A stretch of 64,000 nt of DNA from a phage (GCA_012401045.1 GCA_012401045.1_4704.2); one strand, 5' to 3'. Numbered from the stretch's first letter, positions 4,744 to 63,385 are shown. The notes: generated from the sequence alone by a model not told the origin. Made by a program: numbers and translations.

Positions 4744-4828
4744 ACGGATGTAAAAAAAATAACACATAGTTAACCTTCTCCCCAACCCGATGAGGGAAGG
4801 GGAGAAGGGCTATGCGCTATTTAATTTA

Positions 4829-5101
4829 TTACGAGGTTAACCACGATTCAATTGTGGTGAGTTTGCTTCTCAGTACGCGCCAACTAGGGTGTGGTGGGAT
4901 CACAGCGCCTTTGTCGATTACGGTTAGCTGAACCTGGTACTTCTGCTGCATACGCGCTACCGTGTCGCTTATCGAGAGGAAAAGCTGGTAACGTTCATAT
5001 GCCGTCAGTTCACTGTCCTGTTGAACTGCGTTGGCCGCTAACGTAATTTCGCGTAAGTCCTTTGCATCCACAGAGACGGTAATGAGTTTATATTGACTCA
5101 T
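4829..5101 (-). CDS. hypothetical small protein (90 aa)
   Basis: ORF track; AAGGAAA RBS 4 nt before ATG; bounded 3' by stem-loop element. Confidence 0.6.
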   Translation of the reverse strand: MSQYKLITVSVDAKDLREITLAANAVQQDSELTAYERYQLFLSISDTVARMQQKYQVQLTVIDKGAVIPPHPSWRVLRSKLTTIESWLTS

Positions 5102-5162
5102 ACGGTTTCCTTATCAACTAGGGTATTGCAAATACAATACCCACCGTCGGACGATAAGTTAA

Positions 5163-7721
5163 TTACTGCTCTTCACGTTCCAGCAGATACTCGGAAGCGG
5201 TAATACCGTTTACCGTACGTACTGCTTTCAGACGAGTATCATCGCTCAGAATTACAGTAACAGATTGCAGACCTTTTACTTTGGTTTCGAAGGTCTTGAA
5301 CACCTGATCCAGCATACGAGCAATGCTTGGGTTGGTTGCAGCCGATGCGTGGGTGTAACCGCTCTGATTCAGCTTCAGAATCTTGGCGTTGGTCGGTACG
5401 CGAACAACAACATGCGGGCGCATCGCGAATACGCTGTGATTGAACCAGTAAGCGTCGTTACTATCTTCGTCGGTAACGATGTCTGGATTAACACGCATAT
5501 CCTCGACAGCCGCATCCGCCAAACGACGTTCGATTTCATCGGCGTCCAGAGAGCCATCTTTCTCCAGTTCTGCACGATACTCACTCATGGCAACCAGATG
5601 ACGTTCACGATTCGCTGCGGATTTTTCGTGAGCTGCTTTCAGGTAGTCATGCATGTTGTACAGTTCTGCCATGGAAAGACGAATGTTCCACTGACCTTCG
5701 CCGTCACGATTGCAGTAGAGACACTTCAGCATGTTGACCCAGGTATAGTAGCAATTGGAGAATTCATCTTCAATGAACTTCTGGTCCATTTTAAGATCGT
5801 GAATCAGCCAACCGGACAGTTCTCCGATATCATCAACGAAGCTAGAGATGGTGGTTTCAGAGAAGTTCTTCGGTACGATACGTTTGATCAGCTTATTGAC
5901 GTCTTTGGTCATGCTATCGTTCAGGAAATGCCAAATACGCAGAGGAATAACATCTCGATACTGTTGCATGATCTGACGATAAGCTTTGATATCGTCGCTA
6001 CGACCTTTATCAATAGACAACGCATCCAGGAATTCATGGATTGCATCCAGCTCTTTGTCGGTATAGGTTCCCAGATAGGAATTGACGGTGGCAAGGAATG
6101 CTAATGCGTCGTTTTGGTTGACGTCGGTGTTGGTCTGCTGAATGATTGCCACTGAAGCTTTGGTTTCAGCATCCTCAACGCTTGACGCTGCGATTGCGTC
6201 GGTGACGGTAAACAGTTTCATTTCGCGCTGCTCACCGACAACGATTGGCTCACGTTGAACCGGTTTGTTAAGACTAACACGAACAACTTCTGCTTGCGCG
6301 ATGCGATCCAGTTTTGCCATTTCCTGCTCTGCCATACGACGAGCGGTTGGATCTGATTCAAGTTCGATGTATTCCACTTCTTCCTCCGTGAGGGATGTAA
6401 TGTCAACAATGGTTTCATGAAGAATTCCGTTTTCGTCGATACGTGCTCGACGAGCGAAGTGCCTGAAGTCATACAACGTCGGCCAACGACTATTAGGTGC
6501 AAAGTCTTTGGCTTTCAGACGCATCTGCATAAATTCTTCATGTTGAACAACACGACCGTAACGCTTAGCATCTTCGGTCGCATCAATTGGATTAACGGTC
6601 TTTGTTACCGTAGCAGAACGAGCCGTACGAACGGGTTCCGGTTTCACCTGCGCAGGTTCAGGTTGAACGGGTTTCTGCTGCCCAGCCTTAACATGCCATT
6701 CTGGCTCTTCGTACTGTTCAGCAAACTGTTCAGCCGCTGCAAAGATATCGTTGATACCACCAATATCTCCTTCAGGATTTGTCGAGTAAATCCGTGGTTG
6801 TGGTGCCTCGTAACGCGGCGCTGTGTTAACAGGTACCTCATCAACGATAGGATCGTCATCACCAACATCATACAAACGGTTGAACGCACAATCCTTCGAA
6901 TCGATGTATGATGGCGCTTGTGGTTGGACAACCGTAGGTCGAGGTTGTGTGCCGTATCCTGGTGTTGTTGGAGCCATACCACGCATAACTGCAGGACTAG
7001 GTTGGTATTGCGGTTGTGGGTAGGTTCCACCATACATGGCGTACGCAGGCTGTTGTGGTTGACCATACCCGTTGCTAACCATCGCGCTTGCTTGCGGCCC
7101 ACGATAAGTCATCCCCATCTGCATCACCTGCTGCTTCAAACCACGTGATTTCTGAGCGATTTGCGCCAGGCTTCCGCTTTTATTCAGCTGCGTGTACTTA
7201 TTCGCGGCTTCCGGGTTAATGCGTGATAATTCAATCGCGCGATAATATTCCGGGTACTGATTCGGTTCAAAGAGCCACGTTACAAGATGATACAGCGCAA
7301 CTGTACTCACGGCAGCAGAGACGATCTGGTCATCGGACGCGTTCTGTGGCATCGGGTTGATGTAAGAGAACACGTTCCAACAACAGTCTTCAACAAGCGA
7401 TTCCATCATCATATCGTTATTGGTATAACGTGCGACGAACTCGGTTTGTATTTTGTCTTGCTGAGCGAAGTCTTTCAGGACATTAAAGATGGCTTGACGG
7501 ATTTTGACGATCGTCGCTTCTTGGGTGATGAAGTTATAGTTCTGCTGATATGAGGGTTGTTGGTATTGTGGTGGTTGATAGGCGTTATTCGGGTATGCGC
7601 CGTACGGCGATTGCTGATACTGTTGCTGACTAACCTGTTCAGCCGCATAATTAACCGTGCTCGTATAAGGGTTTTCGCTATAGCCCATTTGTTGATACAT
7701 GTTGTTACTGCCATTATACAT
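5163..7721 (-). CDS. hypothetical protein (852 aa) with Gln/Tyr/Pro-rich low-complexity regions
   Basis: ORF track; AAAGGA RBS; N-terminal ~60 aa and an internal ~75 aa stretch are Q/Y/P/G-rich (QQPAYAMYGGTYPQPQYQPSP). Confidence 0.85.
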   Translation of the reverse strand: MYNGSNNMYQQMGYSENPYTSTVNYAAEQVSQQQYQQSPYGAYPNNAYQPPQYQQPSYQQNYNFITQEATIVKIRQAIFNVLKDFAQQDKIQTEFVARYTNNDMMMESLVEDCCWNVFSYINPMPQNASDDQIVSAAVSTVALYHLVTWLFEPNQYPEYYRAIELSRINPEAANKYTQLNKSGSLAQIAQKSRGLKQQVMQMGMTYRGPQASAMVSNGYGQPQQPAYAMYGGTYPQPQYQPSPAVMRGMAPTTPGYGTQPRPTVVQPQAPSYIDSKDCAFNRLYDVGDDDPIVDEVPVNTAPRYEAPQPRIYSTNPEGDIGGINDIFAAAEQFAEQYEEPEWHVKAGQQKPVQPEPAQVKPEPVRTARSATVTKTVNPIDATEDAKRYGRVVQHEEFMQMRLKAKDFAPNSRWPTLYDFRHFARRARIDENGILHETIVDITSLTEEEVEYIELESDPTARRMAEQEMAKLDRIAQAEVVRVSLNKPVQREPIVVGEQREMKLFTVTDAIAASSVEDAETKASVAIIQQTNTDVNQNDALAFLATVNSYLGTYTDKELDAIHEFLDALSIDKGRSDDIKAYRQIMQQYRDVIPLRIWHFLNDSMTKDVNKLIKRIVPKNFSETTISSFVDDIGELSGWLIHDLKMDQKFIEDEFSNCYYTWVNMLKCLYCNRDGEGQWNIRLSMAELYNMHDYLKAAHEKSAANRERHLVAMSEYRAELEKDGSLDADEIERRLADAAVEDMRVNPDIVTDEDSNDAYWFNHSVFAMRPHVVVRVPTNAKILKLNQSGYTHASAATNPSIARMLDQVFKTFETKVKGLQSVTVILSDDTRLKAVRTVNGITASEYLLEREEQ

Positions 7722-7755
7722 TTCTTACGATCCTTTTTATTTATTCGGTTATGTG

Positions 7756-9552
7756 TCAATCGATTATGTCACGATCGTTAATTTCTACAATTTCTTCATC
7801 GAATCGACCGACGTCTTTCTTCAAGCCTGCATTGGTTGCTGCAACGTCATTTGCAATTTGTGGGGTAATGATTAACCGACCGCGTTCGTCGATAGGTGCG
7901 TACATACTGAACTTCTGACGTCCGGTTGGTTCGGAGTGTGGAAGATTCAGATAGCTTGCGCAGAACGGGATGGAACCACTAACCAAACGACTCTCGTCAG
8001 CCAATGCAGCACCGCCTGCGTTTTGGCTCTGGAGAACAACATGCGTGCTCACTTTGAACAGCATGCAATCACCAGGTGACTGAATCGATGTTGCCACTTT
8101 CTCACGTTTGTCACGATTGCTCTGGATATTGAGAATCGCTTCCGTTGCAACTTGATTTCGCAACGCCTTCTGTACATCGCGATTGGTCATCTCTTTACGG
8201 TTGTTCTGTCGTTTACCACGCTCCGTGGTTTTAAGATGGAACCCCAGTTTAAAGATGCTCTTACGCACATCCTCCATGACATATTCCAACACCATCAATT
8301 CCTTACCGAACATCGTCGTGGTATCAACACGACTCATTTCGATAGTAACATTGTCAATCAGATAGGCCATAAATTCATAGAAGTCGTCGCAAGGAATATT
8401 TTCCTGTTTGAACTTCTTCTGCTGAATTTCGTCAACGTAAAGATCGAGACTGTCGATGTGGTGGTTTACATCACGCAACAAACGCGCATCCGCATTGTTG
8501 TTATTAAAGATAATCAAACCGAGTAATGTACGCCAATGGTCTGGCGCATTCGCGAACTCCTCAACCGGATAGTCTTCCGGAAAACGATCGTAATAACGGT
8601 CGATGAGATACAAGAATGCACCGACAAGGCCAAGAACAATACGTTCCGTGCCTCCACGTCTTACAGCAATTTGAATATCAGGATGTTTGTAACGTACAGC
8701 GCTAGCGCTACGACTTTTACCGCTTTTGCTGATACTAAAACCTTTAGGAATAACCCCCATGGTGCGATAGATTACCCATTGGTCACGCGGAAAATCGCGT
8801 TCAGCAAGGTTCCGTCCGGTTACGGCTTCGACACCTGCAAAACGTCGGAAACACTCACCCACCCCGTACTTCGCAAAGAGATAGTGACCCAGTGTGGTTA
8901 CGCTGGTGTGGTTGATGTTGTCACCGTTCACTTTACTTTGTTTGGTAAGATGATAGATTTGTGACCAGGGTAATGACAGGTAATGACGATAATCGATACC
9001 GGTCGGTGTATCATTGCTCAGGAACTGATACGGCGTACGTTTAACCGTGATTTTGTCACGCGGAAGCATGATGAACGCCATGTCTTTCGTGTAACTGATT
9101 ACCGGGTCAGCGAGCACTGCACTGAGAATGAAGTTCGCACCACGTAGACGCATTTTACCACCCTGACCTACCGCGGGTAATAGGAGAGGATGTCGGATAA
9201 TGCAGTAGTCCTTTCCGGGTTCACGACGGTCACCTGATTCCATCGCGCCGTACCAGCGGAATTCTAGCATCACCATAAACACATCGGATGGCGCAAGGTC
9301 GAAGGTCAGCTTACCGCTATCCTTCCCTTTGGTTTTCTTTCCTCCGCTTAAGTAGTGGAACTGTTCGCGGGCCATACAGCGACGCAGGCCATGATACACC
9401 AGATCCTTAGGTAAACTATCTTTGCTGTTCCGCCAAAGACGATCAACATAGGACTCAACATCTTGCATCTTATCGACGACGATGTTGCGTGCTATCTTCT
9501 CGTTCATCTTCGGTGCAAGCCCAGCGACAGCTTTGCAGAATCTAGGATCCAT
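7756..9552 (-). CDS. hypothetical protein (598 aa)
   Basis: ORF track; start moved to second Met (ATG) preceded by AAAGGAG. Confidence 0.85.
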   Translation of the reverse strand: MDPRFCKAVAGLAPKMNEKIARNIVVDKMQDVESYVDRLWRNSKDSLPKDLVYHGLRRCMAREQFHYLSGGKKTKGKDSGKLTFDLAPSDVFMVMLEFRWYGAMESGDRREPGKDYCIIRHPLLLPAVGQGGKMRLRGANFILSAVLADPVISYTKDMAFIMLPRDKITVKRTPYQFLSNDTPTGIDYRHYLSLPWSQIYHLTKQSKVNGDNINHTSVTTLGHYLFAKYGVGECFRRFAGVEAVTGRNLAERDFPRDQWVIYRTMGVIPKGFSISKSGKSRSASAVRYKHPDIQIAVRRGGTERIVLGLVGAFLYLIDRYYDRFPEDYPVEEFANAPDHWRTLLGLIIFNNNNADARLLRDVNHHIDSLDLYVDEIQQKKFKQENIPCDDFYEFMAYLIDNVTIEMSRVDTTTMFGKELMVLEYVMEDVRKSIFKLGFHLKTTERGKRQNNRKEMTNRDVQKALRNQVATEAILNIQSNRDKREKVATSIQSPGDCMLFKVSTHVVLQSQNAGGAALADESRLVSGSIPFCASYLNLPHSEPTGRQKFSMYAPIDERGRLIITPQIANDVAATNAGLKKDVGRFDEEIVEINDRDIID

Positions 9553-9591
9553 CACACACTCCTTTCAGAAAGTTGCTTAAGCAGATTAAAG

Positions 9592-11028: not shown

Positions 11029-11177
11029 CGTCAACCTCCATCAGATTGAAAACTATCACGCATAATACATTTCCCTTTTCTTGTTCTTATCGAGCCGACA
11101 GCCGACGGTTTCAGCATCGTTCCTAGCGCGAGAACGACCTTACGTGTTGTCTATGCCTTATTCATCGCAGGCGTCTG

Positions 11178-11197
11178 TCACCTAGGTAATGTAAGCG
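11178..11197 (-). promoter_or_regulatory. conserved TCACCTAGGTAATGTA box (third, partial copy of the cassette at 19341 and 56566)
   Basis: Near-identical 15-20 nt block shared with 19361-19380 and 56586-56605; lies upstream (minus-strand sense) of CDS 9592-11028. Confidence 0.3.
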
Positions 11198-11228
11198 TCA
11201 AATTTTTTCTATTCGCAACGATAAACGG

Positions 11229-11276
11229 CATAGAAACCTCCCCCAACCCTTGCGGGCTGAGGGAGGCTGACTTATG
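11229..11276 (-). terminator. GC-rich extended stem-loop, family member b (CATA ... TATG flanks)
   Basis: CCTCCCCC / GAGGGAGG arms with inner CCC-TTGC-GGG; ~90 nt 3' of capsid gene stop. Confidence 0.45.
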
Positions 11277-16037: not shown

Positions 16038-16075
16038 CCCTCCTCCAACCCGTAAGGGAAGGAGGAAGGTTTATG
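16038..16075 (-). terminator. GC-rich extended stem-loop, family member c
   Basis: CCCTCCTCC-AA-CCC-GTAA-GGG-AA-GGAGGAAGG then TTTATGACCGC; convergent gene ends on both sides. Confidence 0.5.
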
Positions 16076-44512: not shown

Positions 44513-44525
44513 GTTATAAACACAA

Positions 44526-49322: not shown

Positions 49323-51074
49323 ATGAGCGAACAAGAACGAAAACCTAAGAAGAAACTGCTCGGTATTCAATGTCGACACATCAGCTATAACGAAGCGAAC
49401 GATGGCAGCAAGAACGACCTCATGATCGCAAAAGAGATCATGTTCTTTGATGACAATACGCAAGCGACGAACCTTCGCTTCTTTGAGAATTACAAACGTC
49501 CGTTTTGGGTGACGGTAGAGAGTAAACGTAAGAACAAATATAAAAAGGAAAGCGAGAAGCTCTCGCATGTGCGTCGCTACGATGTCCGCCAAAGCGAACT
49601 GGTTGAAAAGATCAGCTCGGTACTTTATAAAAGACGTGCTGACGATAACACCCGTTTACAGCAGCTTGCACGGAGTCCATACCTCTATGGAACGGACGTT
49701 AGCGCCAGCTGTTATTTAAAAACCCAGTACAACACAAAATGGCCGGAATACGTCGATAAATTACCCGCTTCCATTGCCTGTTTCGATATCGAAACCGACG
49801 TTGTCCACGGACACGGTAAGATCGTTTGTATGTCTATTACAATGGGATACAATGCGATACTTTGCTATACCAAGGACTTCGTTGGTCATATTCCGAATGC
49901 CATTGAGAAAACCCATGAGAAGATTCGATATTACCTGGCCGAACGTCTGAATACCAAAGAAGATCCCCACGCATTCGAAAAATATCAGTACGATGTTCGA
50001 ATCGTAGAAAGCCCGGCACAAGCGGTCATCCAATGCATGCAGAAGGTTCACGAATGGCAGCCGGATTATCTCCTTGGCTGGAATATCGCGTTCGATATTC
50101 CGCGCATGCTCCAGGCACTGAACGAGGAAGGGTATCGTCCCGAGGATGTTTTCTCCGATCCCCGTATACCACCTAAATATCGTATTGCTCGCTGGGTACC
50201 ACCGAAGACCGACAAGGTATCTGCTTCAGGTCGTAAAACCAACCTTACCCTTGAGCAAACCTGGCCGATGTTTTATACGATGGCTACGTATCAGGTTATG
50301 GATGCGATGTGTGGCTATAAGTTCGTTCGTTTAGGAAGACCGGATGAAGGACGCTATTCACTCGATGCGGTGTTAGAGCGAAATAAATGCCATACGAAAT
50401 TAAAAGCTATTCCTGGTACAGAGGGGTTCACGGAGCTTGCCTGGCACGAAGAGATGCAAACGAACCATCAAATCGACTACGGCGTATATAACCTTTGGGA
50501 TAACCAGGGTATTGAGGCGTTGGACCAGAAAACAAAAGACTATTCGATGACCATCCCTATCCGTTTAGCGGCGTCGGATTTGAAAGATTTCAGTTCTAAC
50601 CCTAAACGTATCTGCGATAAACTTTTCTTCGTTTATCTTAACCGTGGGGAAGTCATGGGATGTACCGCTGACGACATGACCCAGGAAGAAGATAAGTGGG
50701 TTATCTCACGAGCTGGACATATCGTCACATTACCATGCGATCTCATGGCTGACAACGGCATTCATCTCTTCTGGGATATGCCGAACCTGAGAAGTTATAT
50801 CCGTCTATTCGTTGCAGACCTTGACATTAGCAGTTCATACCCGAATGGGCAGATCCTGTTGAATCTATCCAGAGCGTGTGTTTTTCGCGAGCTCTCACGC
50901 ATTGAGGGCGTCTCTGACTATCAATTCAGGAAGTTAGGTATCAACTTTATTACCGGAGGTAAAACGAACGCTGTAGACTTCTGTAGAATCGTTTATAAAG
51001 CACCATCGATGTTTGAACTTTTAGAACATTTCGATGCAACGCGTCCAAAAGAGGAAGCGCGGACCATCGAATGA
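49323..51074 (+). CDS. family B DNA polymerase, N-terminal part (3'-5' exonuclease domain plus motifs A and probable B; no motif C)
   Basis: ORF track; Exo I FDIETD, Exo II NIAFD, Exo III YNLWD, motif A DLDISSSYPNG, possible motif B KLGINFITGG; protein ends ~35 aa later. Confidence 0.7.
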   Translation: MSEQERKPKKKLLGIQCRHISYNEANDGSKNDLMIAKEIMFFDDNTQATNLRFFENYKRPFWVTVESKRKNKYKKESEKLSHVRRYDVRQSELVEKISSVLYKRRADDNTRLQQLARSPYLYGTDVSASCYLKTQYNTKWPEYVDKLPASIACFDIETDVVHGHGKIVCMSITMGYNAILCYTKDFVGHIPNAIEKTHEKIRYYLAERLNTKEDPHAFEKYQYDVRIVESPAQAVIQCMQKVHEWQPDYLLGWNIAFDIPRMLQALNEEGYRPEDVFSDPRIPPKYRIARWVPPKTDKVSASGRKTNLTLEQTWPMFYTMATYQVMDAMCGYKFVRLGRPDEGRYSLDAVLERNKCHTKLKAIPGTEGFTELAWHEEMQTNHQIDYGVYNLWDNQGIEALDQKTKDYSMTIPIRLAASDLKDFSSNPKRICDKLFFVYLNRGEVMGCTADDMTQEEDKWVISRAGHIVTLPCDLMADNGIHLFWDMPNLRSYIRLFVADLDISSSYPNGQILLNLSRACVFRELSRIEGVSDYQFRKLGINFITGGKTNAVDFCRIVYKAPSMFELLEHFDATRPKEEARTIE

Positions 51075-51646: not shown

Positions 51647-51690
51647 TGAATGCTCCTAGTGGTTATGTCGATTGATCGATGTATTGATTT

Positions 51691-51715: not shown

Positions 51716-51716
51716 G

Positions 51717-52181: not shown

Positions 52182-52221
52182 ACAACCCTTCCCCGGCCTG
52201 ATGGCTAGGGAAGGGGCTATG
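52179..52221 (-). terminator. GC-rich extended stem-loop, family member i (diverged)
   Basis: CATACAA-CCCTTCCCC...GGGAAGGGG-CTATG. Confidence 0.4.
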
Positions 52222-52229
52222 CTACGTTG

Positions 52230-52628: not shown

Positions 52629-52664
52629 CTTTTTAATCCCTAGTTTGTTATTGATCACGTATAT

Positions 52665-53060: not shown

Positions 53061-53092
53061 TTTTTATCCTTAATGTTATCGATTTGGAAATA

Positions 53093-53860: not shown

Positions 53861-53862
53861 GA

Positions 53863-54321
53863 TTACCCATTAGCTCCTTCTTCGTCTGGAGAGTATTCCA
53901 TCGTGTAGAATTCATAACCATCGGAAAACTTGAGTGTTAATGTAATAGGGAAATCGCACGGCATAGCTGATTTCGTAAATGCGTTATTAGCAACATCAGC
54001 CAACCGACGTATAGCATCAGTCCCGCTGACGCTGAACGGTAGTTGTATGTTGATAAGGATGCGGTGCTTGTAAACATGGAAAACAACGGTACTGTCAAGA
54101 TAAACGCTATGGAACGGTATTGTTGGGATGCGTTCCACAATGGAAAAATACGTCCCGTCATTATCGCTATGCCCCATCGACCAAATATCGGATTTGCGTA
54201 GATTTTGTTTGAGGGATTCGATACTTCGAGTGACGGTCTCATCAACAGGCGTGACGTAAGTGTCTTTATGCGAGTCGAAAAGTTCGTTGACGTTAGATTC
54301 GAATGAATACATTGTTGCCAT
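53863..54321 (-). CDS. small protein, tandem paralog family B (copy 1)
   Basis: ORF track; QLPFSVSGTDAIRRL...TLKFSDGYEFYTMEYSPDEEG. Confidence 0.75.
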   Translation of the reverse strand: MATMYSFESNVNELFDSHKDTYVTPVDETVTRSIESLKQNLRKSDIWSMGHSDNDGTYFSIVERIPTIPFHSVYLDSTVVFHVYKHRILINIQLPFSVSGTDAIRRLADVANNAFTKSAMPCDFPITLTLKFSDGYEFYTMEYSPDEEGANG

Positions 54322-54782
54322 TATTCTACCTCTTTCTTCATCTTCATCGGAACAGAGAGTGCTGTTATCTCTGTTCCATTATCCGGTTCATACTCCAATG
54401 TAACGAGATTGCAGCCATCCGATAATTCATAATCGATCGCTAGGGGGAACGAGATACCGTGCGACTTTATGCATTTACCAAATGTCTCGTTGGCTGTATA
54501 CATTAGAAGTTGCTTTGCGGCAAGCCCGTTTACGCTGAAAGGTAATTGTGCTGTCGCAGCGATACGATTATTGTAAACTCTGATATCGGTGATATCTACA
54601 ATCGTAGCATTGCCGTGTTGTGTTGTTGGAACGGATAGGTTGTAGAAGTAAGGTTCGGAGTCGGAATCGGGCTCGTTAAATAATTCCCAGCACCCGTCCT
54701 CCTGCAATCTTACTTCGAGTATTTCAAAGCTTTTAATTATCGATTCTACCAGCTGCTCACCGTAAGAATCCCATGTCGTCAT
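54321..54782 (-). CDS. small protein, tandem paralog family B (copy 2)
   Basis: ORF track; QLPFSVNGLAAKQLL...DYELSDGCNLVTLEYEPDNG. Confidence 0.75.
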   Translation of the reverse strand: MTTWDSYGEQLVESIIKSFEILEVRLQEDGCWELFNEPDSDSEPYFYNLSVPTTQHGNATIVDITDIRVYNNRIAATAQLPFSVNGLAAKQLLMYTANETFGKCIKSHGISFPLAIDYELSDGCNLVTLEYEPDNGTEITALSVPMKMKKEVE

Positions 54783-54853
54783 TTTTTAACACCTTCGACA
54801 CCTTTTAACCGATACGTGTCCCATCTAACAAGGGACACGATATCGTTGATTAA

Positions 54854-55354
54854 TTACTCTTCTGTGTTTTCATTGTCAGGATCGTAGTGGAATTCGAACA
54901 GCCCTGAACCGTCGTGTCCGTTGATTGTTAGTATAACGGGCATATCGAATCCTCGGACACGCGAATGAAAACATTGTGCTAATTTTAGTTTGGCGTATGC
55001 CGCTACTTCATTGACAGCAATACACGATTCACCTGTTATACTCAGTATAACGTCGATACTAACAACGTTGTCGTGCAACGCAAAACGCCAGCGATCGATA
55101 CGATTATTATCTTTATCGGTTGTCTCGTTTACGAGATAGACTTTATCGTCAACCGACAAAGCGGGACTCCAGCAACGATCGTTTATTAAATTCGCCTGGA
55201 GTTTTAGTATCGTCTGATCGATAATATCCCAACACGTAACCAGCGTGGTGTCAGGCACTGAGTAGAGAAGGGCGTGCACTTTATCCTTTATTTTAAGTGC
55301 TTCCGCAGGACGTCCGCAAATACCATGCATTTCAACTTTCTTATTCATATTCAC
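54854..55354 (-). CDS. small protein, tandem paralog family B (copy 3, diverged)
   Basis: ORF track; TINGHDGSGLFEFHYDPDNEN. Confidence 0.7.
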   Translation of the reverse strand: MNMNKKVEMHGICGRPAEALKIKDKVHALLYSVPDTTLVTCWDIIDQTILKLQANLINDRCWSPALSVDDKVYLVNETTDKDNNRIDRWRFALHDNVVSIDVILSITGESCIAVNEVAAYAKLKLAQCFHSRVRGFDMPVILTINGHDGSGLFEFHYDPDNENTEE

Positions 55355-55391
55355 TTCTTTCTTAATCTAAATGTTAGTTGGGGTGGGATGT

Positions 55392-55994
55392 TTACATGCT
55401 TTCTAGCATATTGACGATCATGGAACCCATACCGAAACTCGGTCTTTCACCGATGTACTCAGCAAGCTGGCGATGGACGTCTTTTGGATTTCCTTCTTCA
55501 CCATCGGCATCGATGTAAACCGAAAAAGAAACCGAATCGGAATCCACGCTGATAACCAGACGACGTTCATTGCGTTCCTTGAGCGTGTCGACGATAGATG
55601 CTTTCAGTACCGGGATCGCATTCATCGCGTGCAAGATATCTCCATCGGGTTTCGGCAGATCGATCTTTTCTTTCAGGTCGATATTGATGTTGGTTACAAT
55701 TGGATTGAGGTCGACCTTGACATAATCGTTAGGATACATGCGAATAATCGCACGATCGATATCTGAGCCGTAAAAGTCAACACGCGGCTTTAACACTTCT
55801 TTGTTTGGATCCATGTTTTCATCCATCCCAGCCTGCAAGAAACGTTCTACGTTATCCAGTTCACGATAAACTGACGCTTCGATTTCTTTCAGATAGTTGG
55901 CTGCGGTTTCATGTTCTTTACGCAGCTCGTCTTTAAGGAGCTGTACGGTGGTTTCACTGGAACGGATGCTGTTCGCGAATTGTGTAATTGACAT
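55392..55994 (-). CDS. hypothetical protein (~200 aa)
   Basis: ORF track; start moved to ATG (MSITQ) after AAGGA. Confidence 0.75.
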   Translation of the reverse strand: MSITQFANSIRSSETTVQLLKDELRKEHETAANYLKEIEASVYRELDNVERFLQAGMDENMDPNKEVLKPRVDFYGSDIDRAIIRMYPNDYVKVDLNPIVTNINIDLKEKIDLPKPDGDILHAMNAIPVLKASIVDTLKERNERRLVISVDSDSVSFSVYIDADGEEGNPKDVHRQLAEYIGERPSFGMGSMIVNMLESM

Positions 55995-56092
55995 ATCGAA
56001 TTCCTTAAATTCTCTTGAGTTCAATTAATGATGAAAAGCTGTAAAAAAAGGTGGGGCGAACCCCACCAAAACGTCAGACACACGCAGGAAAA

Positions 56093-56518
56093 TTAATTCA
56101 GTGATGCATATAAGGCATAACGACTGTAGATCTCAACCGCCGGTCCGTTATGTGTTAACAGACCATCCTGGTTGTAATACTGGAAAAATGAATAACGTTT
56201 GTCGAAGTGATAAACAAAAGCGATGTCTTTGCCGTCAAAACCTGTGATGCGTGGTCTGTTTTTATCTAGCAATGCTTTGACTTTTAACAGTGTTGCCGCA
56301 CGTGCTTTAACGTTAGGGATCAAGCCATCACAATCGATATAAACGGTGTAACCTGTTTCAGATGTTGCGACGGTTGTATTGCGATTGACGCGGAAGATTT
56401 TTGTTTCGTATGTACTATCTTCAAGAATTGGGTTTTGTTTTTCGTATTTTCGTTTACGTAGAAATTCTACAACGGTGATATAGTTAGCGGTAATATGCCC
56501 GGTTATTGCTTGTAACAT
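56093..56518 (-). CDS. hypothetical protein (141 aa)
   Basis: ORF track; AAAGGATG RBS; promoter/operator-like cassette upstream. Confidence 0.75.
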   Translation of the reverse strand: MLQAITGHITANYITVVEFLRKRKYEKQNPILEDSTYETKIFRVNRNTTVATSETGYTVYIDCDGLIPNVKARAATLLKVKALLDKNRPRITGFDGKDIAFVYHFDKRYSFFQYYNQDGLLTHNGPAVEIYSRYALYASLN

Positions 56519-56565
56519 CTCGACATCCTTTTATATTGGATTGATTGCAATTGTCTTAAATAGAT

Positions 56566-56620
56566 GATAAGATATTTTGCTCTTATCACTAAGGTAATGT
56601 AGTCGCGAAATAAACTGCGT
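56566..56620 (-). promoter_or_regulatory. conserved promoter/operator-like cassette: inverted repeat GATAAGA-N8-TCTTATC followed by ACTAAGGTAATGTAGTCGCGAAATAAACTG
   Basis: ~85% identical to 19341-19400; upstream of CDS 56093-56518. Confidence 0.4.
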
Positions 56621-56639
56621 TAACACGAAATAAAAACAG

Positions 56640-56698
56640 CATAGAACCCTCCTCCCCCATCCTTCAAGAGGACGGTGGGAAGAGGGAGAGATTAAATG
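56640..56698 (-). terminator. GC-rich stem-loop, family member j (enlarged and diverged)
   Basis: CATAGAA-CCCTCCTCCCCC...GGGAAGAGGGAGAG-ATTAAATG. Confidence 0.35.
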
Positions 56699-57093
56699 TC
56701 GTGGACGGCAATGCCGTTTAACCAGCAATACAGCTTAACGCGACACGGATACCGCTTCGTTGCGGCAACCATTTCATCGCGTAAACGCTGGTAGATTTCA
56801 TCCTGGTGTTCACGTTCAATGGGGTAATCAGCCCAACATTCGATCATGACATCACCATTCGTCAGAATCGTCGTACGCATCCTGTCCTGGATACGGCGGT
56901 CTTTCCCGGCATTAGGGAAATACATTCCTTCAGTACGAATAAGGTCGCCGCAGGGCATGACTAACCATTCGTTCGTTTTGCCGGTATTCTTATAATCCAT
57001 TACGGCTTGCATTGCGGTGTCAACGCTAAAAGAAACATAATTCCAAACGGATGTCCAACGATAGATTGCGGGTTGTTCGAGTGTTTCGTTCAT
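56692..57093 (-). CDS. hypothetical protein (133 aa)
   Basis: ORF track. Confidence 0.75.
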   Translation of the reverse strand: MNETLEQPAIYRWTSVWNYVSFSVDTAMQAVMDYKNTGKTNEWLVMPCGDLIRTEGMYFPNAGKDRRIQDRMRTTILTNGDVMIECWADYPIEREHQDEIYQRLRDEMVAATKRYPCRVKLYCWLNGIAVHDI

Positions 57094-57140
57094 GGAGTGC
57101 TTGTCCTATTTTTATTTTCTGCACAGGATAAATTCAACGG

Positions 57141-57185
57141 CATAAAGCCCTTCCCTGCCCTTATATGGGGCGGGAAGAGTTTATG
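57141..57185 (-). terminator. GC-rich extended stem-loop, family member k
   Basis: CATAAAG-CCCTTCCC-TGCCC-TTATAT-GGGGC-GGGAAGAG-TTTATGACCGC. Confidence 0.45.
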
Positions 57186-57306
57186 ACCGCAATGAGAATC
57201 TCTCACGACAAGCTCACGACGATTATCGCATCACCCCGCGAGTGAGGGAGATCAGGATCACCTCCTACGTCGTAACGACAGCAATCCCGTTACGTCGCTT
57301 TAGACG

Positions 57307-57933
57307 TTATGCGAAGCGACGCATGTAACCCGCCAGATAGTTACGCGTATCGAAGTAAGCAATTTCAGGAATTGCGATATTAAGGTCGATAGCGCGGATT
57401 TCAACTTGGCGACGGCTTTCATCATAGATCGCATCCATCAGACGCAGTACTGTCAGGAAAGCCATGCGGGTATGGTAGTCCAGCGGCATGTTATCGATAC
57501 CGCGATACAGATAACGGTTTGCATTAAATGCCCCTTCGCTGTTATCTTTCCAGATCTTCAGAATATCAGCAAAGGCGGTGCGGAAAACTTCAGGATTATC
57601 CACATCCAGTAACGCACGGAAAGCAGACATTAAAGACCGCTGATGACGGATCAACGACTGCGGCGTTTGCGGCATGGTCGGACCCATTTCTTCCGCATAT
57701 TTCTGGAACGGAGCAACCAGGGTTGCGGCACGAGAAGCCACGATAGAAACAGCAGGCGATTCTTTCACCGCCGGTTTCGCAGGCTTTTCTTCAACAACGG
57801 TTTCCTTCTTCTCAACAGCGACCGTTTCCGGCTGTGCTACAACATCACTAACCGGAGCATCTGCAACGGTGGTTTCTACCGCAGTAATCTCCTCGTCCAT
57901 TTTTGCAGAACGTTGGTCTTTATTCTTGCTCAT
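57307..57933 (-). CDS. hypothetical protein (208 aa) with acidic Val/Glu/Ala-rich N-terminus
   Basis: ORF track. Confidence 0.75.
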   Translation of the reverse strand: MSKNKDQRSAKMDEEITAVETTVADAPVSDVVAQPETVAVEKKETVVEEKPAKPAVKESPAVSIVASRAATLVAPFQKYAEEMGPTMPQTPQSLIRHQRSLMSAFRALLDVDNPEVFRTAFADILKIWKDNSEGAFNANRYLYRGIDNMPLDYHTRMAFLTVLRLMDAIYDESRRQVEIRAIDLNIAIPEIAYFDTRNYLAGYMRRFA

Positions 57934-57958
57934 GTTTATTTCCTTTCATTTAACAAGG

Positions 57959-59260
57959 TTAACTAATATAAAGTTCAGGATCGTAAGGCGCTAACGATAC
58001 ACTGGCGTTATGCATTGCTTTCATCATAGTGTTCATGAAAACGTTGTTTACACCGGTGATCTCTGCCCCGATCGCGTCTGGGGTTGGAGCCATCGCGTTA
58101 CCGCAACAGGTAGCACAGTATTCCAATGGGCCTGCTTTACAACGTTGAGGATCGCGTAACTTGATGGTTTGTCCTTCCAAGGAAGCAAGTAATTCAGCAT
58201 CAATAAGTTTAAGCGCCGCACCGTCGATCATGTAACGGCCGACAAGCAGCTTATCTTTGATATGATCGCGGTTTACCGTGAACAGAATATGTTCGTGGGT
58301 ACCGCAGTCGTCCATCGTGATTTTAAGGTTCTGTGTCGCACGTTGTGATTCTTTCGCCGTCTGTCCCGCTAAAGCGGTCAGTGCGCCACGTGAGAACGAA
58401 CCTGCACGTGCACTGTTGTTGTACTCCGCCCAATGGTCGACACGCATCCCTTCAGCCAGGCTGTGTGTGATAACGTTACGTTTACCAGGGTCAACGAAGT
58501 CGGCTTCAACCCCCATCATGATGTGTGTTTTCTTTCGAGTATTACCGAAACTCTTGCCTGGGTTAATATAGAACCCTTCCGATTCGTCGCCCTTAAAGGA
58601 TTCTTTATCCATTTTGGTTAGCGTGGCTTCGAGTTTGATCAGTTCTTCAGGCGTGAACTTACCTTCCTCTTGTAAGCGTGCTAACTCTTTATCGCGATAG
58701 GCAATAATATCATCATCGACCGTTAACGCTTTATCACTCATTGATGGAACAATTAAACGGTTGATAGCGGTTAATGCGCTGATATTGTTGGTGAATTTCT
58801 TCACTTCGCTTGCGTACAACGGACCAATTGGACGTTCGTTAGGATCGGGTATTCCCTCTTCAGGATCGTCCGCTACGCGTGGCGCAATCAGTGACTCCAG
58901 TGTACCGCTGGTCAACCGTCCTGCCTGGTATTCAATCTGAATACCGAAAGCATCATAAAGGACGTACATATTGAACAACGCTTCACCGAAGGTTGTGGTG
59001 GTTGTATTCTTAACCGACGGTAGATCACCAGGTGCAAGCTCCAATGACTCCCAGAAACTCAACAAGGGTTTTGTTGGCTCGGTTTCCCATTGGTGTTCTT
59101 CACCGTCGATGGTAACCGTAACGACGTTACCTTGACGACGTAATTTAGGCTGATACTTCTCAGCGCCGCCTTCCGTAAAAGCAAATGCGTCGTTAATCCA
59201 TTCAAGATAACGGTAGTGCCCTTCACGCATCGCGTAAAGGAAATATTCACGAGGTGTCAT
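57959..59260 (-). CDS. hypothetical protein (433 aa) with C-terminal Cys cluster
   Basis: ORF track; CKAGPLEYCATCCGNAMAP. Confidence 0.85.
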   Translation of the reverse strand: MTPREYFLYAMREGHYRYLEWINDAFAFTEGGAEKYQPKLRRQGNVVTVTIDGEEHQWETEPTKPLLSFWESLELAPGDLPSVKNTTTTTFGEALFNMYVLYDAFGIQIEYQAGRLTSGTLESLIAPRVADDPEEGIPDPNERPIGPLYASEVKKFTNNISALTAINRLIVPSMSDKALTVDDDIIAYRDKELARLQEEGKFTPEELIKLEATLTKMDKESFKGDESEGFYINPGKSFGNTRKKTHIMMGVEADFVDPGKRNVITHSLAEGMRVDHWAEYNNSARAGSFSRGALTALAGQTAKESQRATQNLKITMDDCGTHEHILFTVNRDHIKDKLLVGRYMIDGAALKLIDAELLASLEGQTIKLRDPQRCKAGPLEYCATCCGNAMAPTPDAIGAEITGVNNVFMNTMMKAMHNASVSLAPYDPELYIS

Positions 59261-59273
59261 GTAACAACTCCTT

Positions 59274-60152
59274 TTAAACCCGGGTCAGGTCACCGTGACG
59301 TGAAACGAACTCTGATAACGCTCGGGTTGCTTCTTTGGATTCTTCAGCCATCGGGAAGTTTGCGGTAATAAGTTCTCGTAAGACAGGGACGAGTTCATTA
59401 TCTTCGAGATCGGAAGCTAAGGCGAATGCAATCAGTTCTTGGGTGTATGCATACGGTTGCTGACGTAATGCAGTAAGCTGATCCCGACACTGCGACATTA
59501 GCAGGTCCAGTGGAACCGCTATCGTACCCCCTTCATCAATATACTGGCTGAACACCGGTGGGAACGCATCGCTGATGACACGAATACGTCGACGAATATG
59601 ATCCGGAATCTGGACGTTTTCTTCGTCGGCGACGTTTTCGCTATCTTTCTCCAGCTTCTTGGTCAGTACCTGCTGGATACGTGGGAGCAGGCTTGAATGC
59701 ACAAAACTGATTAATGATGCTACGTCCACAGCATCGACACCGTAAATATAATGCGCGCATTCCGCTAGCGCTTCAGCTGCGGTGTAGTCTTCATCTTCAA
59801 CGATAGCGAGTAGAAAAGCGGTATCGTCGTGTGTTTCCAGGTCTAATAACGTAGACGCTAGCGCATGAAGATATTTCAGGCTATCCAGAGTTAGCTGCCC
59901 TTCGTTAATTCGGATCCCGAAGGCAAGCAATTGTTGTTTATAAAGTTCGATACATCCGTTTGTTAAAATGATGTCTAATTCGTTTAAATCGTATTGTTCC
60001 CCAGCACCTGACAACATCGTACTGCAGAACGTTTCCAGTTGTTCACATTTAAAATCTTGGTATAAACGATGCATGCAGTGCTGTAACAGCGTACGCCTTG
60101 TTTCAGGGATCTTACCTTCTAACAAAGCCAAGACGGAATCAATCATATCCAC
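59274..60152 (-). CDS. hypothetical protein (292 aa)
   Basis: ORF track. Confidence 0.8.
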   Translation of the reverse strand: MDMIDSVLALLEGKIPETRRTLLQHCMHRLYQDFKCEQLETFCSTMLSGAGEQYDLNELDIILTNGCIELYKQQLLAFGIRINEGQLTLDSLKYLHALASTLLDLETHDDTAFLLAIVEDEDYTAAEALAECAHYIYGVDAVDVASLISFVHSSLLPRIQQVLTKKLEKDSENVADEENVQIPDHIRRRIRVISDAFPPVFSQYIDEGGTIAVPLDLLMSQCRDQLTALRQQPYAYTQELIAFALASDLEDNELVPVLRELITANFPMAEESKEATRALSEFVSRHGDLTRV

Positions 60153-60242
60153 TCCGATGCGGTAAATGTCTACTAGCTCTCATAATCTATTGAAGAAACT
60201 ACCAGCTTACGCCAACTTAGATTAATCAGGAGTAACCATCCC

Positions 60243-60716
60243 ATGCCAGTTTCATCCAAACCAAGAAAAAAATCCGTAGGAAACCCTAAAGCTCAGGAAA
60301 CAACAGCAATTCGTTGGGACGAGTTACGTGAACCTATCGAAAACTGCGAATTGTTATTGGGTACCCTGGGTGCGGCTATTTACCAAGCGACGCAACCCTG
60401 TCGTTTACGATTAACCCAAAACAAACGTGATGAGTTCGTTGCGTTATCAACAAGCACGAATAAAGATCTGACCGAACTTCAAACCGAGTTGACGACGATC
60501 AAGAACTCCATTACGCCGATGTACGGTAAAGAAGTTGATGAACAAAGTATTCTGTTACAGTACAACTACGGGATGTCGTTAATGAACATCCTGGAACGCG
60601 CATCCGATATTCTGCGTCCTGACGTTGCACGTCTAAGCCAACTGCGTGTCGAAGGGATGGAGAACCAGATCCGATTCGCTAACAGTGTTAAATCTCAAGG
60701 AGCCACCGAAGCATGA
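60243..60716 (+). CDS. hypothetical protein (157 aa)
   Basis: ORF track; GGAG RBS; 4-nt overlap with next gene. Confidence 0.7.
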   Translation: MPVSSKPRKKSVGNPKAQETTAIRWDELREPIENCELLLGTLGAAIYQATQPCRLRLTQNKRDEFVALSTSTNKDLTELQTELTTIKNSITPMYGKEVDEQSILLQYNYGMSLMNILERASDILRPDVARLSQLRVEGMENQIRFANSVKSQGATEA

Positions 60717-62398
60717 GCGAACAAGAAAAAGAAGTCGTGACGAATCAGGAAGCCGTTGAGCGTTCAGAGTCGTCCGTTGAAACTACGATTCCGGCAAGTT
60801 CCGAGCCGGTTGGTTCCGCACAGCAGGAAAGTAAAGACGAAGTCAGCACGACTAAAGAAGATGTAGTGGCTCCAGAAGCAACCCGTGAAGAAGAACCATC
60901 ACATCCACCACTAATCGATTTCTCGAAGGCGACGATACGTTTCCAATGCGAAGACATTCGTCCTAAGAGCCCGAAGAAAACAAAACGCCAGCCGTTGGTG
61001 TTACCGCTGTATTCTCCACGTGTGCAGACAACGTATTACCGGGAATACATCAACGAAGCAATGGATACCGTGCAAGCCATTGTCGCTCAACGCGGTAAAC
61101 CGACAGACGAACAATTTGATAAATTCAGTAAAGCGGTGGTGCAATCGGTTGCTGATGGACAATATCATCCGCGTGGCCCAGCTCACGATCGCGCCTTGGA
61201 ACGTAAGGGCAGTCAGTGGACTAACGTACCCGTAGACTCATCGGGTGTTGGTCGCGTTATTCCTGGCATTCCACAACCGAACCATATCCCTGATGATGTC
61301 GAAGCGCCGCTGACAGGAACCGATGCGATCTATTTTGCAATCCGCAATACGAAATCAGGTGCGCCTGCGGTAATGCCGTTATGGCATAGCGGTATTAAGC
61401 TGCAGTTCAATCCGCCGTCAAATGAACGTGTTGCAATTATGCACGAACGTATTGCACGCGATAAAATCCTGGGTGGACGTGATAGCACCGGTTTCCTGTT
61501 TTCGGCAACCTCGATTATCACCATGAAGCACGCAATCGAATTAGCGTTAGAATGCTGTTACATGGCCAACGTACCGAACCTGGATATCCAGCGTTTGAAA
61601 GACATTATCCCGGTTACCGATGTTCCGGCATTGTTGTTGAACGTGCTGGTAACCATGTATCCGTACGGATATCCTTACGTACAGACCTGCTATCAGAATC
61701 CAGAAACCTGCGACTATCGTGTTGAAGATACCGTAAGCTTTGCGAAACTCTATCAAGTTGACAACAGCGCAATAACCAAACGTATGCGACAGATCATGAC
61801 CGAAGGTCCGGTCATGACGGATGAACTTTTGCGTGAGTATGCAAACGAACTGGGTGAAACAAACTCCCGTACGCTGGATCTGTCCGACAACGGTTCTGTT
61901 ATCATTGAACTTGAAGTACCGAAGATCTCACGACAAATAGCCATGGGCGAACGCTGGTTAAGCGATACCCTGGAAGATCTGCGTGATATTCTATCGCGTC
62001 CGTCAATGACCGAAGAAGAGCGTGATCGTGTTATTCGTGAACGTCAGTTTTATAGCTGGATGCGTCAGTATGATGCGTGGATCAAATCGATGCACGTGTC
62101 AGTAAACGGTACCATGCGTCGTGTAAGCGATGCAGATACGGCAACGGTATTAGCACAGCTGTCACGAGACAGCGACCTTCGTGAACGTTATATTGACGGG
62201 TTGATGCAATTCATCGGTGATTCGACGATTGCGCTCGCAGCGATGCCTGCCTGGAAATGTCCGAAATGTAATGCCGATATTGCTGACAATCTGCGTGACC
62301 AGAAATACTACGATCTGATTGCTTTGGATGTACCCCAGCTTTTTTTTACCCTAAACTCCGTCCAATCTCTTCAGGAGGGGATGGACGCGGTATTCTAA
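60713..62398 (+). CDS. hypothetical protein (561 aa)
   Basis: ORF track; C-terminal CPKC pair. Confidence 0.85.
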   Translation: MSEQEKEVVTNQEAVERSESSVETTIPASSEPVGSAQQESKDEVSTTKEDVVAPEATREEEPSHPPLIDFSKATIRFQCEDIRPKSPKKTKRQPLVLPLYSPRVQTTYYREYINEAMDTVQAIVAQRGKPTDEQFDKFSKAVVQSVADGQYHPRGPAHDRALERKGSQWTNVPVDSSGVGRVIPGIPQPNHIPDDVEAPLTGTDAIYFAIRNTKSGAPAVMPLWHSGIKLQFNPPSNERVAIMHERIARDKILGGRDSTGFLFSATSIITMKHAIELALECCYMANVPNLDIQRLKDIIPVTDVPALLLNVLVTMYPYGYPYVQTCYQNPETCDYRVEDTVSFAKLYQVDNSAITKRMRQIMTEGPVMTDELLREYANELGETNSRTLDLSDNGSVIIELEVPKISRQIAMGERWLSDTLEDLRDILSRPSMTEEERDRVIRERQFYSWMRQYDAWIKSMHVSVNGTMRRVSDADTATVLAQLSRDSDLRERYIDGLMQFIGDSTIALAAMPAWKCPKCNADIADNLRDQKYYDLIALDVPQLFFTLNSVQSLQEGMDAVF

Positions 62399-62490
62399 TC
62401 GATCCGCGATACGGGTTACATGACGGACAACTTGTTCGTAATGATGAAAAAATCTGGGAACTGCTGTTAGCGCGTAAAGGCGACGGCGGC

Positions 62491-62820
62491 ATGAAGCTGA
62501 ACATCGAAATGGGTATTGCGTACGATACCATGTTTGGCTTGTACGATCGTGTTAACGAATGGACGCCGTTGAAATGGGTTGCTCAGCATCCCGCTGAAGA
62601 TCCCTGGGACAGATTGGGGATTAAACCCTTAATCGAAGATTATGTCCGATTCGGTATTAAAGAGTTCATGACGCTGGATGCGTTTTTAAAAGCACCGTAT
62701 CCTTACGCGCAAACGGTACTCAAAATCGCACAAGACGAACTGCGGAAACGTAGTGCGGTACTGGACGACGATGAGGACAAGTTACGACGAGAAGAAGAAC
62801 GTTTACGAAACGGAAAATAA
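62491..62820 (+). CDS. hypothetical protein (109 aa)
   Basis: ORF track; 2 nt before next gene. Confidence 0.6.
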   Translation: MKLNIEMGIAYDTMFGLYDRVNEWTPLKWVAQHPAEDPWDRLGIKPLIEDYVRFGIKEFMTLDAFLKAPYPYAQTVLKIAQDELRKRSAVLDDDEDKLRREEERLRNGK

Positions 62821-62822
62821 AA

Positions 62823-63331
62823 TGGCAAGATTTACCAGTTTGATTGGATTGGATATTTGGGAAACACCGGCTGACGTTCGGGTTATTCCTGTTAACACCG
62901 TCGGTGTGATGGGACGTGGTCTTGCCAAACAGGCAGCCGATCGTGTGCCCGGTCTTCTTGAAGCGTACCGTAAGCAATGTCAAGATGGGTTTAAGGTGGG
63001 CGAAGTCGTATCGTATCAGCAAGGCGAGAACGATCAGCTCACTTACGTGTTGTTTCCATCAAAATCGGATTGGCGTGAAAGAACACGACGCGAGTATATC
63101 GTTAACGGTTTACTGGCGTTAAAAGCATGGTTACTGGAGCTTCAGTTCGAAAGAGACGGCTTCTCATATCGGCGTCCGGCTGAACCGCTGATCGTTGCAA
63201 TTCCTCCGGTCGGTTCTGGTTGCGGTAATATCGGTTACGGACAATCCGAAACAATCCAGCCTCAATGGGTACGCGCACAAATCAAACAGTATCTTGCCAC
63301 CGTACCAAACGTTCATTTCTACTTGTTCTAA
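62823..63331 (+). CDS. macro-domain protein (ADP-ribose binding / hydrolase fold)
   Basis: Start at ATG (MARFTSL); motifs DVRVIPVNTVGVMGRGLAKQ (compare DAIVNAAN...GGGVAGAI) and VAIPPVGSGCGNIGY (compare hAFPxIGTGxxGxP). Confidence 0.55.
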
Positions 63332-63342
63332 TGCAAAGGTAA

Positions 63343-63385
63343 CATAACCCTCCTCCAACCCGTAAGGGAAGGAGGAGGGCTTATG
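63343..63385 (-). terminator. GC-rich extended stem-loop, family member l
   Basis: CATAA-CCCTCCTCC-AA-CCC-GTAA-GGG-AA-GGAGGAGGG-CTTATG between convergent genes. Confidence 0.5.

Follow-up and report, generated by a model that had tools for sequence, protein, structure and literature searches.

We analysed a 64,000-nucleotide (nt) stretch of phage DNA (GCA_012401045.1_4704.2, called the window below) in which a preliminary description had reported 13 GC-rich stem-loops with CATA and TATG flanks at the 3′ ends of minus-strand genes. Over 98% of its length, a 12-kb piece of the window shares 95.5% identity with Escherichia phage vB_EcoM_Goslar (MK327938), and a search of a phage collection with this piece gave no match besides Goslar. 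Two more close relatives are present in IMG/VR (loci L008 and L009). Goslar is a 237-kb nucleus-forming jumbo phage of Escherichia coli, belonging to the phiKZ-like group (chimalliviruses), and its genes lie mostly on the minus strand. Homologs of the RNA polymerase (RNAP) beta and beta′ subunits are annotated in Goslar, and the window holds a homolog of gp123, a beta-like subunit of the phiKZ non-virion RNAP (nvRNAP), indicating that phiKZ-type multisubunit RNAPs are encoded.

All 13 stem-loops are present where they had been reported. They are listed below with bit scores, folding z-scores or minimum free energies (MFE).

e4765: 4765-4814, no strand assigned; CATA/TATG-flanked hairpin; convergent junction, with the plus-strand gene ending at 4743 and the minus-strand gene at 4829; 34 bits, z −7.0
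e11229: 11229-11276, minus strand; diverged hairpin, 89 nt past the major head protein gene; minus strand after the stem, TATGCCGT; z −5.8
e16038: 16038-16075, no strand assigned; core-family, convergent junction; minus side without TATG, T13 run 12 nt downstream on the minus strand; 54.6 bits
e19414: 19414-19452, minus strand; core-family, 3 nt past the stop codon; minus strand, TATGCTGT; plus side without TATG; 55.5 bits
e24719: 24719-24752, minus strand; short diverged hairpin; minus strand, TATGCTGT; Goslar ortholog (55080..55101) annotated as putative terminator
e30646: 30646-30689, minus strand; core-family; minus strand, TATGGCGT; 53.5 bits, z −7.3
e33351: 33351-33395, minus strand; core-family; minus strand, TATGCCGC; inner segment inverted in L009; 55.4 bits
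e41628: 41628-41670, no strand assigned; core-family, convergent junction; full box TATGCTGT on the plus side, serving the plus-strand gene that ends at 41611; 55 bits, z −7.3
e51113: 51113-51165, no strand assigned; diverged, convergent junction; minus side CATGTGTT, then a T-rich run; MFE −31.4
e52179: 52179-52221, minus strand; diverged hairpin; minus strand, TATGCCGA
e56640: 56640-56696, minus strand; long diverged hairpin; minus strand, TATGCTGT; plus side without TATG
e57141: 57141-57185, minus strand; diverged; the preceding stop codon is 121 nt away and the following start codon 47 nt away; minus strand, TATGCCGT
e63343: 63343-63385, no strand assigned; core-family, convergent junction; TATGCTGT on the plus side; Goslar ortholog (93445..93476) annotated as putative terminator, with two compensated pairs that differ; 57 bits

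The elements are stable hairpins whose pairing is under selection

In a folding scan of every 44-nt segment of the window (mean MFE −7.1, standard deviation 3.4 kcal/mol), the elements fold at −18 to −31 kcal/mol; they are among the strongest hairpins of the window and make up most of the extreme tail. When the flanks are included and the minus-strand RNA is folded, the energies are −25 to −35 kcal/mol, and the z-scores relative to 200 dinucleotide shuffles per element range from −3.8 to −7.3. No shuffle folded as well for 12 of the 13 elements, and a single one did for e52179. A covariance model built from the hairpins of six copies, flanks excluded, detected seven strong copies in the window and 16 in Goslar. 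Standard pairs fill 98.3% of the cells across these copies, a proportion that falls to 70-77% when the partner column is slid by one. Compensatory changes are present, five of the nine outer pairs varying on both sides, and the covariation score was reached by none of 500 shuffles. These analyses show that pairing of the stem is under selection.

A C-rich 5′ arm and a G-rich 3′ arm are found in all 13 elements. The AA-CCC-loop-GGG-AA core, which had been described as common to all but one of them, occurs in seven (e4765, e16038, e19414, e30646, e33351, e41628 and e63343); the other six are differently built, independent C-arm/G-arm hairpins. Likewise, the location just past a minus-strand stop codon holds for 11 of the 13, which start −5 to +16 nt from the stop, and not for e11229 (89 nt) and e57141 (121 nt). 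We found no credible small open reading frame (ORF) filling the gap before e57141. Five elements lie at convergent gene junctions, as had been noted, and all five such junctions in the window are occupied.

The elements were also described as devoid of canonical U-tracts, with the exception of one copy (copy c). None of the copies shows a U-run immediately past the stem, so the rule stands and the exception does not: no run of at least five T was found within 8 nt directly after the stem in the flanks of the 13 elements, and the T-runs of e4765, e16038 and e51113 start 9 to 12 nt after the stem on the minus strand. A consensus terminator scan of positions 44001-64000, which include five of the 13 elements, flagged no family member and only one other site, at 56050-56067. 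Rfam gave no match above the gathering score in the window.

That other site, on the minus strand, is a canonical hairpin followed by seven T (GGTGGGGTTCGCCCCACC TTTTTTT) and is annotated as a terminator in Goslar (86155..86172). The phage therefore has both types of terminator.

A directional box follows the hairpin at gene ends

Since the CATA and TATG flanks are complementary, TATG had been described as facing outward on both strands. The two flanks are in fact not equivalent, as a longer box, TATGCYGT, is found on the side that lies downstream in the direction of transcription. All eight co-directional elements carry TATG(C/G)YG in the sense direction, five of them as TATGCYGT; in the order of the list, their minus strands read TATGCCGT, TATGCTGT, TATGCTGT, TATGGCGT, TATGCCGC, TATGCCGA, TATGCTGT and TATGCCGT. 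At the five convergent-junction elements, again in listed order, the minus side reads TATGTGTT, none, TATGCTCA, CATGTGTT and TATGTTAC, and e41628 and e63343 have TATGCTGT on the plus side instead, after the plus-strand gene.

The association of box and hairpin extends to the whole genome of Goslar. TATGCYGT occurs 11 times in the window, where about four occurrences are expected; seven directly follow a family hairpin and the others are not intergenic. Goslar has 39 occurrences against 14.5 expected, of which 19 are located 1 to 5 nt past a hairpin of −17 kcal/mol or lower; those hairpins vary widely in sequence. The 20 occurrences without a hairpin amount roughly to the number expected by chance. 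According to the GenBank annotation, all 19 hairpin-linked boxes come after the end of a gene on the same strand, with a same-strand gene next at 12 of them and an opposing gene faced at seven.

We used our own gene calls and the 56 intergenic Goslar hairpins of −18 kcal/mol or lower, counting both sides of each, to relate TATG to gene borders. Where a same-strand gene ends upstream, 46 of 64 sides carry TATG, compared with 15 of the 48 other sides (odds ratio 5.6, p = 2.3e-5). No association was found between TATG beside these hairpins and the start of a same-strand gene downstream (p = 0.84), the box being present on 25 of 33 sides where no gene follows and on 21 of 31 where one does. The logo of the sense sides in Goslar is RGGG-T-T-TATG-Y-Y-G-T, and the antisense sides lose YGT. 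An unbiased count of 4-mers beside the 86 strongest Goslar hairpins found TATG on 58 sides versus 9.6 expected; it ranks fourth, behind three words that belong to the stem, and is thus the top non-stem word.

The upstream CATA is a facultative mirror image of TATG. In most minimum-energy folds CAUA/UAUG closes the base of the hairpin; at the four positions further out, 7, 9, 4 and 6 of 18 are paired, no more than expected by chance. YYGT was ruled out as a mirror-image feature since it is missing from the antisense sides. Some hairpins are followed by a tandem duplication of the box (TATGCTGTTATGCTA at Goslar 93479-93495 and 27780-27796, TATGGTGATTATGC at window 30686-30700), whose second TTA is often the stop codon of the opposing gene.

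The elements have the architecture of the phiKZ terminator motif

In phiKZ, 133 termination regions were mapped by ONT-cappable-seq (Putzeys et al. 2024, PMC10914365). At the mapped 3′ ends, 61 predicted intrinsic terminators share the motif 5′-BCCYCCCCHWWDGGGRRGGBYTTATKYYGT-3′, a stem-loop followed by a “TTAT region” (PMC10914365), and the identical motif, called motif A, is found at 59 termination sites of phage 201phi2-1 (PMC11512511). The elements of the window have the same architecture, namely a C-rich 5′ arm, a short loop, a G-rich 3′ arm, one to three pyrimidines and TTATG-YYGT, and the same intergenic location after gene ends, many at convergent junctions. This correspondence supports the part of the preliminary description that read the elements as terminators or 3′-end signals. 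CATAA mirror flanks are visible in phiKZ DNA too, whereas the motif was published without reference to the upstream CATA. The core copies of the Goslar lineage differ by a two-tier stem, with 9 bp, an AA/AA or UU/UU internal loop and an invariant CCC/GGG helix, compared with a stem of about 7 bp in phiKZ.

We observed the CATAA...TTATGYYGT flanks directly in the DNA of phiKZ, Ea35-70 and RSL2, including past each major capsid gene. Among the strongest hairpins of the 100-150 kb region of phiKZ, in which the upstream CATAA mirror is common, the one past the major head gene reads GACATAGGC-CCTCCC-TTCG-GGGAGGG-CTTTATGTTGT; the corresponding sites past the capsid genes are CGCATAAACAGAGGAGGAGC-ATTG-CTCCTCCTCTTATGCCGT in Ea35-70 and ...GGAGTAGGAGTTTATGCTGT in RSL2. 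The position of a strong hairpin past the capsid gene is thus conserved. The box is thus ancient and widely spread in the group without being universal.

Two Goslar orthologs of the elements (55080..55101 and 93445..93476) already bear the label “putative transcriptional terminator”; the others are unlabelled, presumably because they have no U-run.

Bacterial intrinsic (Rho-independent) terminators include bidirectional ones that consist of an A-tract, a hairpin and a U-tract. The elements similarly place a GC-rich hairpin right after the gene, with an A-rich 5′ flank (CATAA) that mirrors a T-rich 3′ flank (TTATG), and serve convergent genes. They differ in having a specific conserved box in place of the U-run.

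A proposed model for termination by the phage polymerases

We consider it likely that the elements are factor-independent terminators or, to put it more cautiously, 3′-end-forming hairpins that are read by the phage multisubunit RNAPs, and that they represent the Goslar-lineage version of a conserved chimallivirus terminator. Actual termination in this phage, the polymerase involved and the positions of the 3′ ends are what we infer from the comparisons above. In this model, the nascent RNA would fold into a very stable C-arm/G-arm hairpin just past the stop codon. After the hairpin would come one to three mostly T residues and then the directional box TATG-Y-Y-G-T in place of the bacterial U-run, and the phage polymerase would stop in or just past the box, with a weak TTAT stretch, rich in U and A, and the specific bases substituting for the U-tract. 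The CATA mirror may let the site stop polymerases that arrive from the other side, or it may close the base of the RNA hairpin; a role in both directions is suggested because the window has no convergent junction without an element. More speculatively, a gp123-type pocket might re-bind TATG during elongation and thereby cause a pause.

Several observations weigh against this model. The elements have no U-run, so they are not terminators by the bacterial definition. The mapped 3′ ends are those of phiKZ and 201phi2-1, a literature search that took in a ChmC eCLIP study having given none for Goslar, and the 3′ ends obtained by ONT-cappable-seq in phiKZ cannot separate termination from exonuclease trimming to the hairpin (PMC10914365). 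In addition, the hairpins of phages PCH45 and SEGD1 mostly precede plain T-runs, showing that the box is not universal in the family, and the co-directional phiKZ site at 142924 has the box on the antisense side only.

Promoter-related features of the window

The promoter-related features of the window are the following.

7756-9555, minus strand: gene for the gp123 homolog (beta-like nvRNAP subunit, whose pocket binds non-template TATG); tblastn 3.9e-53; context for the box, outside the elements
19360-19385, minus strand: early-promoter-type motif TTTCGCGACTACATTACCTAGGTGAT, starting 29 nt past the TATG of e19414 in the direction of transcription
56585-56610, minus strand: early-promoter-type motif TTTCGCGACTACATTACCTTAGTGAT, downstream of e56640
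11177-11202, minus strand: weaker early-promoter-type copy TTTGACGCTTACATTACCTAGGTGAC, downstream of e11229

The preliminary description named TATG as the only conserved element of phiKZ late promoters, which is correct (PMC4666361). This core, in which G is position +1, is required at these promoters without being enough by itself (Yakunina et al. 2015, PMC4666361), and the sequence downstream of it is reportedly not conserved (PMC4666361). The late promoters named in the supplement of that study are P83-1L, P83-2L and P119L only (PMC4666361). The TATG of the non-template strand is bound by a pocket of the beta-like subunit gp123 (PMC12809450). In a pairwise alignment, the gp123 homolog of the window, whose overall identity is about 26%, has nine of the 16 named pocket residues identical, including Phe151, Lys158, Lys190, His331 and Gln466, and two aromatic residues swapped for other aromatics. 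Because pocket residues are kept, the polymerase of this phage plausibly reads TATG. Positions 57959-59260, another candidate for the gp123 homolog, showed no similarity to it and were discarded.

Three co-directional elements, e11229, e19414 and e56640, have a TTTCGCGACTACATTACCTAGGTGAT-type motif about 30 nt further on. The same motif is present, without a hairpin, upstream of six more Goslar genes (motif at 172987, 166078, 142809, 113806, 15076 and 2576, minus strand). The motif, TTTCRCGRCTAYATTACYTAGGTGA, is located 50 to 100 nt upstream of start codons and matches, with the core TATATTAC, the published family of early (virion RNA polymerase) promoters of N1M2, OBP, 201phi2-1, EL and phiKZ, TTTCARR..ATATTAY..AGTG (PMC7058600). 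It probably represents the early promoter set of Goslar-type phages. The presence of the motif past three elements therefore makes for an ordinary terminator-then-promoter layout at these sites. Matches to sigma-70-like promoters are fewer than chance in the part of the window from 44001 to 64000 (20 versus 32.8 ± 5.5 in shuffles), a depletion that fits transcription independent of the host polymerase.

Immediately past e19414 and the early-promoter-type motif that follows it is a segment of about 1.8 kb (17513-19301) that has no Goslar counterpart, about 90 nt being found there instead. This segment holds two ORFs, 17536-18438 and 18524-19306, for which a Pfam search gave no matches.

Does the box also serve as a start site?

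The strongest alternative is that each element combines a terminator with a re-initiation module, as the preliminary description had proposed: the TATG after the hairpin would also be a late start of the nvRNAP, with G as +1, so that one transcript stops and a new one begins at the same place. The four bases are those needed at phiKZ late promoters, also in the non-template strand bound by gp123, and the window encodes a gp123 homolog with the pocket residues just described. All eight co-directional elements have their TATG near the next start codon (17 to 194 nt upstream for seven, overlapping at e52179), five of the eight have no other recognizable promoter motif, and about half of the intergenic TATGs of the window are hairpin-linked. 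Nevertheless, the box is equally frequent where no gene follows (p = 0.84), and seven of the 19 full boxes in Goslar aim at the 3′ end of an opposing gene. Three sites have an early-type promoter of their own downstream. Furthermore, the late promoters of phiKZ are reported to have no conserved flanks or hairpin and no conserved bases past TATG, whereas here TATG is tied to a hairpin and to the end of the upstream gene and is extended by YYGT; P119L, the best-studied phiKZ late promoter, has no upstream hairpin.

We conclude that the box belongs to the terminator, because TATG tracks the ends of upstream genes rather than downstream starts, P119L is hairpin-free, YYGT is present and the early-type promoters are separate. 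Re-initiation at the G of the box is unsupported by these tests, and we regard the combined module as unlikely. A related idea, which we put forward tentatively and hold to be rather doubtful, is that the gp123-type pocket of the nvRNAP reads the TATG of the terminator: a promoter-like pause together with the hairpin would replace the U-tract mechanism, perhaps leaving the polymerase set to restart at G.

RNA processing as an alternative

The hairpins might instead act on RNA stability, in that polymerases read through and the transcript is then trimmed by a 3′-to-5′ exonuclease, or cut in the box by an endonuclease, to leave a protected, paired 3′ end. The very high stability of the stems (−25 to −35 kcal/mol) without a U-run and the closure of the hairpin base by CAUA/UAUG in most minimum-energy folds are consistent with such a role, and the mapped 3′ ends of phiKZ fit termination and trimming alike. 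However, a barrier to exonucleases needs no conserved, directional YYGT beyond the stem, and the complementarity ends at CATA/TATG. The box is moreover common to phages of Pseudomonas, Erwinia, Ralstonia and E. coli, which share RNA polymerases while the nucleases of their hosts differ. A signal for the polymerase is favored over a role for nucleases because the directional YYGT is kept across phages of different hosts, and a stability element thus appears improbable.

Sequence change between close relatives

Goslar has an element at the orthologous site of each of the 13, and the three loci that we checked are conserved in L008 and L009 as well. The differences between the window and Goslar are mainly in the loops (AACA/GTAA at two loci, GTAA/AGCA, TTGC/TTAC, GTCA/GTGA and TGAT/TTGAC). 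Those that remain are a repaired mismatch in e16038 and a compensated change in e63343, CT to TC in one arm and AG to GA in the other. About 24% of the loop positions differ between genomes of 95% identity. The AACA and GTAA tetranucleotides, which differ by three bases, are exchanged at window 30664-30667 and 41645-41648 relative to Goslar 61009 and 71990 between identical stems, and these swaps look like copy-to-copy conversion.

At the ortholog of e33351, the inner 14 nt are AACCCGTAAGGGAA in L009, TTCCCTGACGGGTT in the window and TTCCCTCACGGGTT in Goslar. Reverse-complementing the TTCCCTTACGGGTT variant of other sites gives exactly the inner segment of L009, which is inverted apart from the loop; the inversion comprises the internal loop, the 3-bp helix and the loop (L009:11355-11386, compared with window 33358-33389 and with L007/L008). 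This suggests that the inner segment flips between the inverted outer arms, or that copies exchange. The orientation of the AA/UU internal loop was considered as a functional strand mark and ruled out, as it varies by site relative to the full box and is inverted at the L009 ortholog.

Palindromes of a similar kind are known elsewhere, such as the REP/BIME sequences of E. coli and the promoter-stem-loop (PeSL) cassettes of T4-type phages. Like them, the elements are intergenic palindromes at the 3′ ends of genes and bear signs of copy exchange. They might be DNA-level palindromes (a repeat or mobile element, a cruciform or the site of a dimeric protein) that reside at gene ends only incidentally. 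The near-identical 32-nt copies, seven in the window and 16 in Goslar, the multi-base swaps between AACA and GTAA at two loci and the inversion in L009, which suggests recombination or template switching between copies and arms, would agree with this possibility. In contrast with REP/BIME and PeSL, though, there is no presence/absence polymorphism between related genomes, with all 13 positions kept in Goslar and the three loci in L008 and L009, by which a mobile element was rejected. Unlike in PeSL cassettes, sigma-70-like promoters are depleted rather than attached, and a phage early-type motif is near three copies, about 30 nt off. Diverged members retain pairing and not sequence, the spacing of the flanks varies with the length of the stem, and the box is strand-specific relative to the upstream gene. 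We thus regard a DNA-level function as very improbable.

The idea that the elements control translation, with the G-rich arm acting as a Shine-Dalgarno sequence that the C-rich arm would mask and the ATG of TATG as the start codon, can be dismissed almost entirely: the likeness of the arms to Shine-Dalgarno and anti-Shine-Dalgarno sequences, pointed out in the preliminary description, is real as sequence, and GGAGGAGGG-N2-ATG resembles a ribosome-binding site with its start codon, but these ATGs open only short, unconserved ORFs (4 to 61 codons on either strand, except at e52179, for whose ortholog the Goslar annotation places the start codon later), and the motif is equally present at convergent junctions.

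Two further observations concern gene starts near hairpins. Goslar_00047 (49584..49772) is annotated as starting at the ATG of a terminator-box TATG; the same ATG, at window 19414-19416, opens an ORF of 30 codons only, and this gene call is probably spurious. A strong hairpin of opposite polarity, with the G-rich arm first (CCTAGGGGAAGG-loop-CCTTCCCCTAGG), does not belong to the family; it is located at window 44482-44514, where it separates two minus-strand genes and closely precedes a GGAG...ATG ribosome-binding site.

Implications for chimallivirus transcription

This kind of element has already been described for phiKZ and 201phi2-1; the elements of the window are a longer, two-tier variant of it in a Goslar-type phage. 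They provide a usable map of the boundaries of transcription units for Goslar-type phages, Goslar being a main E. coli model of the phage nucleus. They also indicate that the phiKZ terminator box, TTATGYYGT with its CATAA mirror, is conserved across distant chimalliviruses. Of wider interest is that the box contains the exact four bases that the nvRNAP recognizes at late promoters. The literature that we searched held no paper on the mechanism of termination by these polymerases, and the elements are for that reason ready-made templates for asking whether promoter recognition and termination share a reading head. If a pause caused by the gp123-type pocket were indeed part of the mechanism, it would help explain how a promoter core of four bases gains specificity, and why the box has been conserved from Pseudomonas phages to E. 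coli phages.

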